A stretch of DNA of 6,658 bases from a virus (Duplodnaviria > Heunggongvirae > Uroviricota > Caudoviricetes): IMG/VR virus record IMGVR_UViG_3300007790_000263, positions 1 to 6,658 of that record. One strand, written 5' to 3'. Of this stretch, positions 1 to 4,275 are shown piece by piece. The notes beneath the pieces were generated by a model. The model made no database searches and was not told the origin of the DNA. It saw nothing but the letters and a program-made list of their open reading frames with translations. Position numbers and translations under genes: made by a program. Within the stretch, counting starts at the first letter, position 1; each line of letters begins with the position of its first letter.

Positions 1-314
1 CTACTCCCTGCTCAATATTTACTACAAATTTAACAATAAATTAAAACATATCAAACTAAACAATGGGGGGTAAGATTCACTCATGAAATGTATTAAAAAT
101 GATTCATCAGCTAGCCACAGTACTTTCTTACATACGACGTGCCTTCACTTTCAACTCCCGCCAACTCACCAATCAGGACAGGAAAGCAGGCAGAAATCCC
201 TCAAAAACCAAAAAAACAATTTTTATACTGAAAATCAACAAGTTAAACAATGAAAATTATCCTCCCCATCGATTTTCACCTCATCAAAAAGAGTTTTTTC
301 TAATATAGAATCCT

Positions 315-341
315 TTGTTTCATCAGTTTTTTTGTTATAAA
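315..341 (+). promoter_or_regulatory. Putative sigma70-type promoter for the membrane-protein/TIR operon (extended -10 TGtTATAAA at 333-341, weak -35 TTGTTT at 315-320)
   Basis: TGnTATAAA-like extended -10 about 30 nt upstream of the ATG at 373, followed by a GAGGA Shine-Dalgarno at 363-367. The -35/-10 spacing is short (~15 bp) and the region is AT-rich, so hexamer matches are easy to find by chance. Confidence 0.3.
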
Positions 342-372
342 GTATACTTTTGATCAAAGTCTGAGGATATTC

Positions 373-831
373 ATGAGTACAGAAAACTTACAACCAGAAC
401 ATCGTGATGACGGATTACCCGCTAAAATAGCAGCATTAGCAAGTCTGCAAGCCATAATTGCAAGGATGGCTTCAAATTCACAATTAATGAAAACGTGGGC
501 CATCACTATCGTTACTGGATTCATAGCTATCAAGTCGACTTTTGGTGGACTTGGGTATCTATCTTATCTAGTGCCGATTCTTATTTGCATTTCATTCTCC
601 TTTCTTGACTCTTATTATCTTTCTCAAGAAAAGATATTTAGAGATGTTTATAATAAATTAGCGGCCATTCCCGTTGGGAACGAAATGATGTACCTAGATT
701 TCAAAGGCGAAATATATAAAACTTCACAAGAAGAAAATAATTCATTAATGATTTGTTTCAAGTCCCCATCAATTAGTTTATTTTATATCCCAATGGCAAT
801 CATTTCTACAGTGATATTAATCATAGGATAA
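373..831 (+). CDS. Small membrane protein (152 aa, about three predicted TM helices); candidate effector or partner of the downstream TIR-like protein
   Basis: ORF from the track; GAGGA at 363-367 sits 5 nt before the ATG. Hydrophobic helix-length stretches at about aa 41-57, 59-78 and 133-152 (C-terminal ISLFYIPMAIISTVILIIG). Only 4 nt separate its stop from the next start, implying an operon. AT-rich codon usage matches the neighbouring gene. No family recognised by eye. Confidence 0.65.
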   Translation: MSTENLQPEHRDDGLPAKIAALASLQAIIARMASNSQLMKTWAITIVTGFIAIKSTFGGLGYLSYLVPILICISFSFLDSYYLSQEKIFRDVYNKLAAIPVGNEMMYLDFKGEIYKTSQEENNSLMICFKSPSISLFYIPMAIISTVILIIG

Positions 832-835
832 TATT

Positions 836-1654
836 ATGCTTGTTAAATTCAGAATAGATCGAAATACAATTACAAATAACAGCACAATTTTAAACGCTAA
901 TGACAACCATTTAATTTACTCAAACCTAAATGACACAGATATAAACTCAAAAATATTTGACGCTGTAAATGGTGAAATATCAGCAAAGAAACTAGCCGAC
1001 GAACTATTTCCTGAAAACGAACCACACATTTTTATATCTCATAGTAGCAAAGACGTAAATGTAGCAATAAGTCTAGCAAACACTCTTTATGCAAAATATA
1101 AGATAACATCTTTCATTGACTCCCAACTTTGGGGACATATTGACCACGCACTAAAGGAAATGCATAATCGATACTGCAAGATCCCCGGCTCATCTTATTA
1201 CCACTATGATAAATCTAATAACCTACTATCTCATATGCACGCCATACTAAGTATGGCTTTAATGAGAGTAATGGATAACGCTGACAGCGTTATATTTATC
1301 GAATCCGGCAACTCAATTTACCAATATATGGGAGATACTACCATTGCTCCCCAAGAAGCAATTGAAAAAACATCTGAAACATTATCTCCATGGATATCCT
1401 CTGAGGTGAATTTTGCAAATACCTTAAGATTGAAAGGCCATAAAGATAGAGAACAACCATTAATGGAAAGCACAGATTCATACTCTTTAAACAAGAGTAA
1501 TATTAAAGCAGACTCCTTACCCAAAATAATACATGAAGTCAACTTAAGTAAATTCATAGAGATAGACAACAAAAAATTCAAAGAGTCTTTATCATTAAAT
1601 GAAACAAATCCAATAAAAACTTTAGATATGATTTACCAAATATATGCTCAATAG
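836..1654 (+). CDS. TIR-like domain protein (ThsB-like / DUF1863-type), 272 aa, with N- and C-terminal extensions
   Basis: ORF from the track; AGGA at 823-826 upstream. Residues 64-72 (IFISHSSKD) match the first beta-strand signature of bacterial TIR/ThsB-like domains (compare vFfSfhyqD). TSFIDSQ forms a plausible second strand. SPWISSE (aa 184-190, Glu codon at 1403-1405) resembles the S-x-W-C-x-x-E-l motif that carries the catalytic Glu of TIR NADases. About 60 aa N-terminal and 70 aa C-terminal to the domain have no recognisable family. Confidence 0.7.
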   Translation: MLVKFRIDRNTITNNSTILNANDNHLIYSNLNDTDINSKIFDAVNGEISAKKLADELFPENEPHIFISHSSKDVNVAISLANTLYAKYKITSFIDSQLWGHIDHALKEMHNRYCKIPGSSYYHYDKSNNLLSHMHAILSMALMRVMDNADSVIFIESGNSIYQYMGDTTIAPQEAIEKTSETLSPWISSEVNFANTLRLKGHKDREQPLMESTDSYSLNKSNIKADSLPKIIHEVNLSKFIEIDNKKFKESLSLNETNPIKTLDMIYQIYAQ

Positions 1655-1682
1655 GTAGTTTTTATTTTTAGCATCTAATAAA

Positions 1683-1714
1683 CCGTTGGCACATCATATA
1701 CAACGTGCCAACGG
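1683..1714. terminator. Stem-loop at the island boundary: perfect 10-bp inverted repeat CCGTTGGCAC / GTGCCAACGG with a 12-nt loop; possible bidirectional intrinsic terminator
   Basis: Inverted repeat read directly (1683-1692 and 1705-1714), 28 nt after the TIR gene stop. The T-rich run lies on the left side, so it gives a U-tract (UUUAUU) for minus-strand transcripts; the plus-strand side has a poor U-tract. Confidence 0.45.
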
Positions 1715-1861
1715 AACGAGTCAATTACAATTATTTTATGGCAGGAAAAACTGACGAATCAATATCTGGTTCGGTTGCTGTATCAATACGGTTCAGCAAC
1801 ACCTAATATTTCTTCCATGCCGCCAGCAATGAGGTCTCCTCTGCCGCCACAATACCCAAAT

Positions 1862-2028: not shown

Positions 2029-2421
2029 ATGATGCCATTTGCTCGTTATTTCTGCATTTTCATAAACGTTGGTTTGGGAGAAGCGGCTAAAAGGAATGTA
2101 GGGACAGGGGCGAATCAGATACCTGATATGGGTAGCTTCACGCTTTCTGTTTCAGGTACTGGATATCAAAAATTACCATCAGGTTTTATTCTTCAGTGGG
2201 GTTCAATCGGCGCACCAGGCATTGCACAGGATGTGGTAACCCATTTTCCGATTGCATTTCCAAACCGATGTCTGCGTGTTTTGGTCTCACAAGACTACAC
2301 ACCAGATAGCGGGGCTGTTGGTTATATTGCCTGCGCAGGTTTTAGTTCCGACCCGGTTAAATTTATATCCAGAGCCGGTACTCCAGGTCTCGGCGCTTCA
2401 TTTTTAGCGTTAGGCTGTTAA
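2029..2421 (+). CDS. Alternative tail-fibre C-terminal variable cassette (promoterless; in frame with the fibre constant region after inversion)
   Basis: ORF from the track. Its ATG at 2029 lies outside the invertible segment and has no proper RBS (AGGA abuts the ATG). From the crossover site at 2057-2082 the frame reads [10 protein letters not shown], with the same frame and GLGE junction as ENLGLGEG in the expressed fibre gene. TAA stop at 2419-2421 is followed by a good RBS and the tfa' start. Confidence 0.6.
2057..2082. other. Left invertase crossover site (hix/gix/pix-like 26-bp site, TTTTCATAAACG-TT-GGTTTGGGAGAA)
   Basis: Inverted relative to the site at 3925-3950: its right half GGTTTGGGAGAA is the exact reverse complement of the left half TTCTCCCAAACC of the other site. 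Has the AAACC-NN-GGTTT core architecture of hixL (TTCTTGAAAACCAAGGTTTTTGATAA, from memory). Lies 55 bp from the invertase start. Confidence 0.75.
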
Positions 2422-2442
2422 TTTAGCTATATGGAGTGAAAA

Positions 2443-2883
2443 ATGAATTACATATATTCCGCGACTACAAACTCTTTCTATCCACTGGAAATGAAAGAGG
2501 ATTACACTCAAGCTGACTCATGGCCAGATGATGCTGTTGAAGTTGATGAGCAGGTGTATATTGAGTTTTCCGGATTACCGCCGGAAGGAAAAATCCGTAT
2601 CGCTGGAGAAAATGGTTTTCCTGCATGGTCTGAAATTCCACCACCAACACCTGAGGAACAGATTGCTGCAGCCGAACTGGAAAAGCAGCAACTGATTAAT
2701 CAGGCCAACGATTATATGAACAGTAAACAATGGCCTGGTAAAGCGGCTATTGGTCGTCTGAAAGGTGAGGAACTGGCGCAATATAATCTGTGGCTGGATT
2801 ATCTGGACGCACTGGAGCTGGTCGATACTTCCAGTGCGCCAGATATTGAATGGCCTACGCCTCCGGCAGTTCAGGCCAGATGA
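2443..2883 (+). CDS. Tail fibre assembly protein, alternative-orientation copy (Tfa' / U'-like), 146 aa
   Basis: ORF from the track; GGAGTG RBS at 2432-2437. C-terminus DIEWPTPPAVQ carries the W-P-x-x-P ending typical of Tfa chaperones and parallels DVIWPELPEA in the convergent tfa. Lies directly downstream of the alternative fibre cassette. Confidence 0.75.
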   Translation: MNYIYSATTNSFYPLEMKEDYTQADSWPDDAVEVDEQVYIEFSGLPPEGKIRIAGENGFPAWSEIPPPTPEEQIAAAELEKQQLINQANDYMNSKQWPGKAAIGRLKGEELAQYNLWLDYLDALELVDTSSAPDIEWPTPPAVQAR

Positions 2884-3457
2884 CATCCGGCGCGGTGCTG
2901 GTATCTGTTGCCGTCACCGCGTCAATGTAATCCAGCACAGCGTTAAGCCGGGTTGTTTCTGCCTGCGTCAGTTTCCGCCCGGCCTGTAATTTCAGCTGAA
3001 TCAGACTAATGGAAGCCATTGCTGCATCAATCAGTGACTGGCGCTGTGCTTCTGCCGCTTCTACTGCGGCACCGTGTTGTGCCTCAGAATCTGTCACCCA
3101 TTTCTCACCATCCCATTTATCATATGTCGTTAACGGGACGATAGTGGTTGTATTTTCAGGGTAATCACCCGGAGCTGTGATTTCTTTTGCTTCTCCTGTT
3201 TCGGTGCTATAGATAATTTCACCGCGATGGTCTGGCATATATTCCCATGAGTTTAAATCTACTGAACGGCAGATTGCATAACCAGCCTTATATGTGCCAG
3301 GAGCATCTAAACAGGAATATGCCGGGATACCGACACCAACGGCAAGATATTCATTTGAAGTGGAAATATATTCCCGTGTTTCACCATCATAGTTATAGAC
3401 GGTAATATTCCCCGCCTTCGTGGCAATAAGTTCGCTATTTAATACGGCTTTATCCAT
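2855..3457 (-). CDS. Tail fibre assembly protein (Tfa / U-like chaperone), 200 aa
   Basis: ORF from the track. Its start overlaps the fibre stop (TAATG at 3455-3459). C-terminal DVIWPELPEA motif. Sits immediately downstream of the tail fibre, in the position of Mu U / P2 G. Confidence 0.8.
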   Translation of the reverse strand: MDKAVLNSELIATKAGNITVYNYDGETREYISTSNEYLAVGVGIPAYSCLDAPGTYKAGYAICRSVDLNSWEYMPDHRGEIIYSTETGEAKEITAPGDYPENTTTIVPLTTYDKWDGEKWVTDSEAQHGAAVEAAEAQRQSLIDAAMASISLIQLKLQAGRKLTQAETTRLNAVLDYIDAVTATDTSTAPDVIWPELPEA

Positions 3458-4275
3458 TATGCAGCTCTCACGATATAGTTAAATGCAATATTTCGTGGAC
3501 GGGTTTCGCTCCCACCTGTGTTACCAATACTCCCTCGTGTATGTAGCGTTGGTGATGGAATCAGAGTTCCTCCGGCATCGGCAGCATCAAGCCCCCGGCC
3601 TTGCGTATATGCTCTTCTGAAGATTGTCGCCAGTTCCCATTCCTCTTTTGAATCATACCCATCGTTGGCAACAACAATATGGCGGTGTTTTTCCAGCATC
3701 CCAGTCTGAATGCTCAATAAAGCACGTCCTGCATCAATACCACGCCCGTCATCCCATCCACGAATAAACTCACCACGGAGATCAGGTAGTTTCCCTGATG
3801 GATATGCTGTAGCAAGATGGGGATATTTCACCTTATCAAAGGCAGCGCCGTTGCATTTCAGCCAGCCCGTTGGCGGGGTTGCGGAGGGCCACGGAACAGG
3901 CACACCAACAGGTAATGCAGAGCCTTCTCCCAAACCAAGGTTTTCGAGAGCCGTTTTCACCGTGCCATCCGATTTGATATCACCAAACGGATTCTTGCGG
4001 CTCAGGTATTCAACAGCAAACCCCGATCCCAGCAATTCAACAAAACCGGGCAGATCACCATTATCAAGCACATCCCGTTGCGTTTTATCACTTACAAACT
4101 GGGCCAGAGCTGCAGCAATAAAGCTGGCCTGCCGAATAACCTTATTGACTTGCGCACTGGAGGCTTTCCCTGCTGTAAATCCGGATAAAAGCGCGGGCAA
4201 CGCTTCCCATTCCTCCTGCGATATAACATTGGCATTTCGATCCGTTGCAAACGCTTTAAAGTCATTTTTCGCCAT
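3457..4275 (-). CDS. Tail fibre protein (constant N-terminal part outside the invertible segment, variable C-terminal tip inside it)
   Basis: ORF from the track (longest form 3457-4293). I prefer the ATG at 4275-4273 (MAKNDFKAF...) because it overlaps the upstream stop as ATGA and has GGGGAG about 10 nt upstream, whereas the 4293 start has AGGAG only 1 nt from the ATG. C-terminus ...[19 protein letters not shown] matches the conserved ending of Tfa-dependent fibres (lambda Stf / T4 gp37 / Mu S type, from memory). The crossover site lies in-frame at ENLGLGEG. Confidence 0.8.
3925..3950. other. Right invertase crossover site (TTCTCCCAAACC-AA-GGTTTTCGAGAG) inside the tail-fibre gene
   Basis: 26-bp site with the AAACC-AA-GGTTT core, close to the hixL consensus. 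Inverted partner of 2057-2082. Falls at about codon 112-118 of the fibre gene, at the constant/variable boundary. Confidence 0.75.

Follow-up and report, generated by a model that had tools for sequence, protein, structure and literature searches.

What are two small genes, both called 'hypothetical protein' in RefSeq and each assigned to a PHROG family of unknown function, doing beside the tail-fibre module of a prophage, and does such a pair belong to a system that has already been described? The question is raised by a stretch of viral DNA of 6,658 nucleotides, which was analysed at its full length and is termed here the window. A previous sequence-only reading had seen in the pair, a small membrane protein followed by a TIR-like protein, a candidate undescribed anti-phage system. 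The features on which the discussion bears are the following:

264 to 1747, plus strand: mobile cassette, the DNA common to two unrelated E. coli prophage contexts (genome matches)
363 to 367, plus strand: Shine-Dalgarno sequence GAGGA of gene A, 5 nt ahead of the ATG at 373 (sequence reading)
373 to 831, plus strand: gene A, a thsF-like putative effector gene, 152 aa, three predicted membrane helices, PDC-M50A (PADLOC, homology, AlphaFold2)
824 to 827, plus strand: Shine-Dalgarno sequence AGGA of gene B, 8 nt ahead of the ATG at 836 (sequence reading)
836 to 1654, plus strand: gene B, thsB, 272 aa, predicted TIR-domain sensor and signal synthase with candidate catalytic Glu190
1683 to 1714, no strand assigned: hairpin with a 14-bp stem, just 3' of the thsB stop (terminator scan and RNA fold)

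The general layout is as it had been read from the letters. The two open reading frames lie on the same strand, each with its own ribosome-binding site, and are separated by the four nucleotides TATT. They sit on an AT-rich island next to a tail-fibre module, with a GC fraction of 0.33 between positions 1 and 1760 of the window, versus 0.48 between 1900 and 6658, and with prophage genes as neighbours. A consensus scan upstream of gene A gave no convincing sigma-70 promoter, and no Rfam family was found anywhere in the window. The hairpin that follows gene B is a stable one (RNA fold of -19.1 kcal/mol; z = -3.9 against shuffled sequences). In the terminator scan its T-rich tail appears on the minus strand, and the plus strand has no T-run. 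It is probably a transcription stop that separates the cassette from the prophage remnants converging towards it, its role on the plus strand being putative. Are these frames translated into something useful to the cell or to the phage? Two variants of the cassette, about 85% identical in nucleotide sequence, exist in E. coli, and their comparison gives dN/dS ratios of 0.23 (gene A) and 0.21 (gene B). Because the ratio is about 0.2 in both, these are genuine coding sequences, under purifying selection.

We may begin with the second gene, as it is the more telling of the two. Its product displays the motif HIFISHSSKD at residues 64-73 and SPWISSE at residues 184-190, residue 190 being a glutamate. 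In alignments of 26 and of 15 sequences, reaching down to 25-30% identity, this glutamate is invariant, together with the FISHS motif and W186. The PADLOC model for ThsB, PDLC00430, matches the protein over nearly its whole length (7.7e-43). That the protein is TIR-like, with Glu190 as a candidate catalytic residue, is therefore well founded, and the two features required of a ThsB, a TIR fold and a catalytic glutamate motif, are both found in it. General-purpose libraries see far less. The Pfam family TIR_2 matches below threshold (E 0.02) and over the first strand only, NCBIfam gives nothing usable, and a sequence search of the PDB yields a marginal TIR match, again for the first strand only. 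The profile search that had been put forward as a check gave a divided answer: PADLOC recognizes both proteins, as ThsB and PDC-M50A respectively, and Pfam offers this single weak TIR_2 match for gene B and none for gene A. The Pfam-based detection of types TIR-I to TIR-IX in E. coli (Wang et al., 2024) would probably have missed gene B.

The product of gene A is less talkative. Pfam has no match for it at E<=1, NCBIfam is also empty, and searching the PDB by sequence returned only noise. Its AlphaFold2 model (pLDDT 79) comprises three long helices, at residues 15-57, 62-98 and 132-151. Hydropathy agrees with this picture, its second and third segments being strong and that at 41-57 moderate, so that the description of a 152-residue protein with about three transmembrane helices holds. 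So does the remark that it has neither a SIR2/SLOG nor a Macro domain: Pfam, NCBIfam and PADLOC gave no ThsA match of either sort. A patch of conserved polar and basic residues (R31, N35, S36, K40, D79, Y82, E86, R90 and Y93) flanks the first two membrane helices. Several Thoeris types were considered for this protein and set aside. Type I, with its SIR2-SLOG ThsA, has no counterpart in gene A or in the relatives scanned. Type II would ask for a Macro domain, with no ThsA_Macro match found and 152 residues being too short for one. As for types VI (DUF6650) and VII (SLATT), neither domain was matched in gene A, nor in 79 or in 10 of its relatives.

Which known system, then, combines a ThsB with a small three-helix membrane protein? 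A preprint by Yirmiya et al. (bioRxiv, 3 Dec 2025; doi 10.64898/2025.12.03.692087) has widened Thoeris to types I-XI. Type V associates ThsB with ThsF, a protein with three membrane helices which the authors label DUF2270 (Yirmiya et al., 2025). Entry 2649505888 of their Table S1, listed as 'DUF2270 - Type V', is a protein of 269 residues, all of them shared with gene B (its residues 1-269) without a difference. It is placed in TIR cluster 2734579397, and its 'selected for verification' column is blank. The validated member to which we can compare our pair is that of B. thuringiensis DAR 81934, the ThsB of which is 30% identical to gene B (E 3e-29). For its partner we used a gene for a protein of 141 residues, located, on a contig from the B. 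cereus group, directly 3' of a ThsB that is 100% identical to the published one. This position, and the consecutive IMG identifiers of the published pair (the effector being the TIR identifier plus one), point to this gene as ThsF. Gene A is 34% identical to its product over 133 residues (BLASTP, E 4e-20), and a profile made of the enterobacterial gene A proteins aligns with it with an hhalign probability of 99.1% (E 1.8e-18). Furthermore, the Bacillus pair matches the same PADLOC models as ours, at 1.8e-48 for PDC-M50A and 2.8e-82 for PDLC00430. BLASTP, hhalign and the common PADLOC models thus make genes A and B homologous to the validated type V pair. As judged from its sequence, the cassette is a member of the TIR-based anti-phage type V Thoeris family, an already known family in which this very TIR protein is catalogued.

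This settles what becomes of the initial proposal. The idea of a Thoeris-like pair in which the membrane protein is the effector-like partner finds its support in homology with a validated ThsF. The word 'undescribed' has to go: the cassette corresponds component by component to ThsB and ThsF, and its strong identity to a characterized system is found at the level of family membership and of the catalogue. The effector family itself is no newcomer, having been present in PADLOC since 2023 as the candidate PDC-M50A. PADLOC PDC systems are experimentally untested candidates predicted by guilt-by-embedding (Payne et al., bioRxiv 2024). Gene A resembles PDC-M50 in that it matches all four PDC-M50A HMMs (best 3.7e-26). 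The likeness stops with gene B, the best match of which is ThsB, with no PDC-M50 partner model matched. Two-gene systems of this type being already described, the discovery value of the cassette is small.

A word must be said about the label DUF2270, as it might seem to argue against this assignment. The corresponding Pfam family, PF10028, does not match gene A at E<=1. Among its relatives it was matched below threshold in 1 of 79 sequences, then in 4 of 10, with E values of 0.004-0.11 and scores of 12-17 bits versus a cut-off of 25. Yet the validated B. thuringiensis ThsF (L090:3273-3698) also fails the gathering threshold of DUF2270, its best weak match being to 8xMP (PF24838), at E 0.012. 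DUF2270 is a loose label, one that does not discriminate, and we do not take failing PF10028 as excluding membership in type V. Weak matches nevertheless recur in the gene A family: 9 of 79 sequences show one to DUF3278, and 7 of 79 show one, spanning the full length, to the 'octameric membrane protein' 8xMP. Such similarities hint that the family belongs to a broader superfamily of small membrane proteins that form oligomers. A search of the literature on PDC-M50 and 8xMP found nothing relevant.

How close is the cassette to its best-known relatives? With the DAR 81934 system it shares the architecture of a two-gene operon, a long TIR protein of ThsB type (cluster 2734579397) and a three-helix membrane protein of about 140-150 residues. 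It differs from it in gene order, the effector coming first in the window and the TIR first in Bacillus, both orders being met among relatives. It also differs in its setting: the window carries a prophage moron from a Gram-negative host, whereas the Bacillus copy belongs to a chromosomal defence island, near Gabija-like genes. Type II (ThsB with a TM-Macro protein, His-ADPR as the signal) follows the same logic of a TIR signal producer and a membrane-spanning effector that cause abortive infection, but its TIR cluster is different and gene A is devoid of Macro; some members of the TIR clade do, however, adjoin ThsA_Macro genes. Types VII (SLATT, canonical cADPR) and VI (DUF6650 with or without TM, 2'cADPR) also combine a TIR protein with an effector that is small, oligomeric and associated with the membrane, and type VI is also known in E. 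coli (the S1 and ACN001 systems), but their TIR sequences in Table S1 are unrelated to gene B. Finally, type IX of B. cereus VD021 has a ThsB of the same TIR cluster, 2734579397, that makes 3'cADPR, but a TIR-SLOG protein serves as its effector in place of ThsF.

Do the two genes keep company in distant organisms? Species-representative genomes were scanned with the TIR-clade alignment, and this yielded 80 loci from Pseudomonadota, Bacillota, Bacteroidota, Cyanobacteria, Planctomycetota, Spirochaetota and others. At 43 of the 80 a gene of the gene A family is the direct neighbour on the same strand (14 upstream, 29 downstream); at 2 it is adjacent on the opposite strand, and at 7 it lies further off within the ±3 kb flank; there is none in that flank at the remaining 28 loci. 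An HMM made from enterobacterial sequences alone is sufficient to find the partner at 52 of the 80. The pairing of effector and TIR is conserved across phyla. Other members of the TIR clade adjoin ThsA_Macro or SLOG-type genes, or lie in multi-TIR arrays. Such interchange of effectors (ThsF, Macro, SLOG/LD_cluster3, TIR-SLOG) is what one would expect of a clade whose TIR proteins produce a signal.

Some individual loci have features of their own. Two metagenomic ones (L007:130-4293 and L008) interleave two ThsF-like genes with three TIR genes, one TIR being fused to a domain that resembles a nucleoside deoxyribosyltransferase. Both arrays give the impression of a compound type V system or of a duplicated one. 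In Erwinia tracheiphila (L009, 956-3717), the closest species-representative locus outside E. coli, the ThsF-like and ThsB genes are about 1.5 kb apart, and the gap may reflect an insertion that disrupts the operon. Mobile elements of other kinds also carry the pair. In 14-kb tectivirus-like elements of Vibrio (Vinavirales), it comes directly after an integrase-like gene. Vibrio phage 10N.286.55.A5_PE002 (L089, PQ189363.1; 1347-2635) has a TIR protein 35% identical to gene B, with a partner recognized at an hhalign probability of 97.8% and at 1.4e-33 by PDC-M50A; its depositors annotated only ThsB. A 5.1-kb Logan contig (L004, from SRR21279719) has overlapping ThsF-like and ThsB frames, with a TIR 34% identical to gene B, and is apparently a small mobilizable plasmid, with MobC/NikA, replicase and RelB/ParE genes.

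What would the pair do in the cell? We consider it very probable that the cassette is a type V Thoeris defence which a prophage bears as a moron at its tail-fibre end, and in which a 3'cADPR signal made by ThsB would cause membrane damage by ThsF. To this view the present analysis brings the homology of both proteins, their system's listing in the catalogue, the fold and motifs of a TIR protein, the pairing of the genes and purifying selection. In such a scenario ThsB would stay inactive until infection by a phage is sensed. It would then use Glu190, within the conserved W-x3-E motif, to turn NAD+ into a signal of the cyclic ADP-ribose kind, most probably 3'cADPR. ThsF would be an inner-membrane protein of about 150 residues, its three helices predicted to assemble into a ring-shaped homo-oligomer. 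The signal would bind this oligomer at the conserved juxtamembrane patch contributed by the first two membrane helices, and the bound oligomer would shift to a membrane-disrupting state, stopping the infected cell before the release of progeny, that is, by abortive infection. For the E. coli copy we infer the defence itself, 3'cADPR as its signal, the site where this signal binds and the damage to the membrane. They are modelled on DAR 81934, where ThsB makes 3'cADPR in a phage-dependent manner, where exogenous 3'cADPR, and no other isomer, arrests cells carrying the system, and where the Tad1 sponge lowers or abolishes defence (Yirmiya et al., 2025). In the AlphaFold3 prediction, seven protomers of this ThsF form a ring that resembles a channel, with pockets of positive charge where protomers adjoin (Yirmiya et al., 2025).

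The same observations bear on a quite different division of labour, close to one envisaged in the sequence-only reading, where the TIR protein would itself kill by depleting NAD+ and the membrane protein would merely serve as a sensor, an anchor or a regulator. It is hard to see why a killer of this kind should accumulate a signal when the homologous TIR is left alone, without its effector, why exogenous 3'cADPR should be toxic only to cells that bear the system, or why a sponge for the signal should abolish defence. The association of the same TIR clade with unrelated effectors, noted above, speaks in the same direction, and we regard this explanation as highly improbable.

It is more delicate to decide on the nature of the signal. 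The identity to the validated proteins being only 30-34%, the signal used in E. coli could differ, the ThsB/ThsF logic being otherwise the same. In that case the enterobacterial clade would use 2'cADPR, canonical cADPR or some other ADPR derivative as yet unknown. The identity between gene B and the Bacillus ThsB that makes 3'cADPR is no more than 30%, and at least five signals are used across Thoeris types (Yirmiya et al., 2025). Moreover, a second type V system from Bacillus (Bacillus sp. 1NLA3E) makes 3'cADPR, yet its cells are not intoxicated by it (Yirmiya et al., 2025). This type V system and type IX make the molecule and are not activated by it, for which the authors suggest another molecule or an additional signal. 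Against this, both tested members of TIR cluster 2734579397 produced 3'cADPR, and the cognate effector family is the one that responds to 3'cADPR. A change of signal is in our view unlikely, even if it is the only rival that retains an appreciable probability. We hold equally unlikely a broader proposal, in which the enterobacterial ThsB/ThsF clade departs from the Bacillus prototype through another signal or a second input, the latter being what Bacillus sp. 1NLA3E seems to need, and in which ThsF, given its weak similarity over the full length to 8xMP and DUF3278, belongs to a wider superfamily with a pore or gating mechanism still to be solved. If true, this compact E. coli system would become a native-host model for the way a protein of 150 residues reads a nucleotide signal and breaches a membrane.

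With 3'cADPR-driven type V defence still the favoured reading, we come to the setting of the cassette. Of 5426 complete E. coli genomes, 12 carry it. Three copies are identical to the window and terminate a myovirus-like prophage, with yfhH as their neighbour. The other nine are the variant form, located at the end of a lambdoid prophage, on the icd side, beside a pair made of an AAA ATPase and a 'retron system putative HNH endonuclease'. With window positions 250-1760 as a query, the matches in these nine genomes are about 85% identical and run over query positions 15-1498, the equivalent of 264-1747 of the window. A direct comparison of one copy of each kind (L001:12001-13511 with L002:8001-9486) gives 85% nucleotide identity at the tail-fibre ends of two unrelated prophages. 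In both settings the cassette is flanked by a fragment of a tail-fibre assembly gene, and this points to recombination inside tfa genes as the probable route of transfer. Since 264-1747 is common to two prophage settings, both with that flanking fragment, the cassette is a mobile moron.

Could it be a moron with some other function than defence, a toxin-antitoxin module for example, as had also been proposed, or a copy on its way to decay? Its surroundings do lend some colour to the idea, with pseudogenized prophage genes (a truncated invertase and a tail-fibre assembly fragment) adjoining a cassette that only 12 of the 5426 genomes possess. To this may be added that a type V system from V. 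cholerae, with a TIR of a different cluster and the sole proteobacterial one tried in E. coli, gave no defence (Yirmiya et al., 2025). Against it, both frames are intact, with dN/dS of about 0.2 over 15% of nucleotide divergence, the catalytic motifs are invariant and the pairing is kept across phyla. Homologues, moreover, reside in defence islands, for instance by Gabija-like genes in Bacillus, and some have been validated as defensive. There is very little to recommend this reading, and the results obtained with the homologous system disfavour the two alternatives of the sequence-only reading alike, the NAD-depleting TIR effector as well as the toxin-antitoxin-like module.

There remains a practical interest. 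A type V Thoeris native to E. coli, encoded by a prophage, and of only about 1.3 kb, would be convenient to handle. Because the only proteobacterial type V system tried in this host gave no defence, a working native copy would be useful, as a model for the unsolved mechanism of ThsF and for superinfection immunity mediated by prophages. The case is also a lesson for annotation: Pfam and NCBIfam annotation misses both proteins, and the name given to ThsF, 'DUF2270', fails the threshold of the very Pfam family from which it comes.

The borders of the cassette call for some further observations. In strain KOr019, a protein of 215 residues (WP_071290391.1, L001:11097-11744) is encoded between yfhH and the cassette, just upstream of what is position 1 of the window. 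It was considered as a third component and rejected, as it matches no Pfam or PADLOC family and is absent from the second prophage context; it is probably outside the system. On the other side, downstream, the neighbours comprise the remnant of a tail-fibre assembly gene and a truncated invertase, as well as baseplate genes and an invertible segment of tail-fibre sequence. The invertase remnant, on the minus strand at about 1898-2038, retains the first 34 codons or so and is joined to the tail-fibre assembly fragment. The segment is of the Gin/Cin/Pin type. It extends over 1,880 bp (2064-3943) and is bounded by 20-bp inverted repeats at 2064-2083 and 3924-3943 that are 95% complementary. Its orientation in the window is opposite to that in strain KOr019, with flanks 99.9% identical. 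Because the orientation differs, the tail-fibre switch has been flipped despite a dead invertase in cis, presumably by an invertase acting in trans or before the truncation took place.
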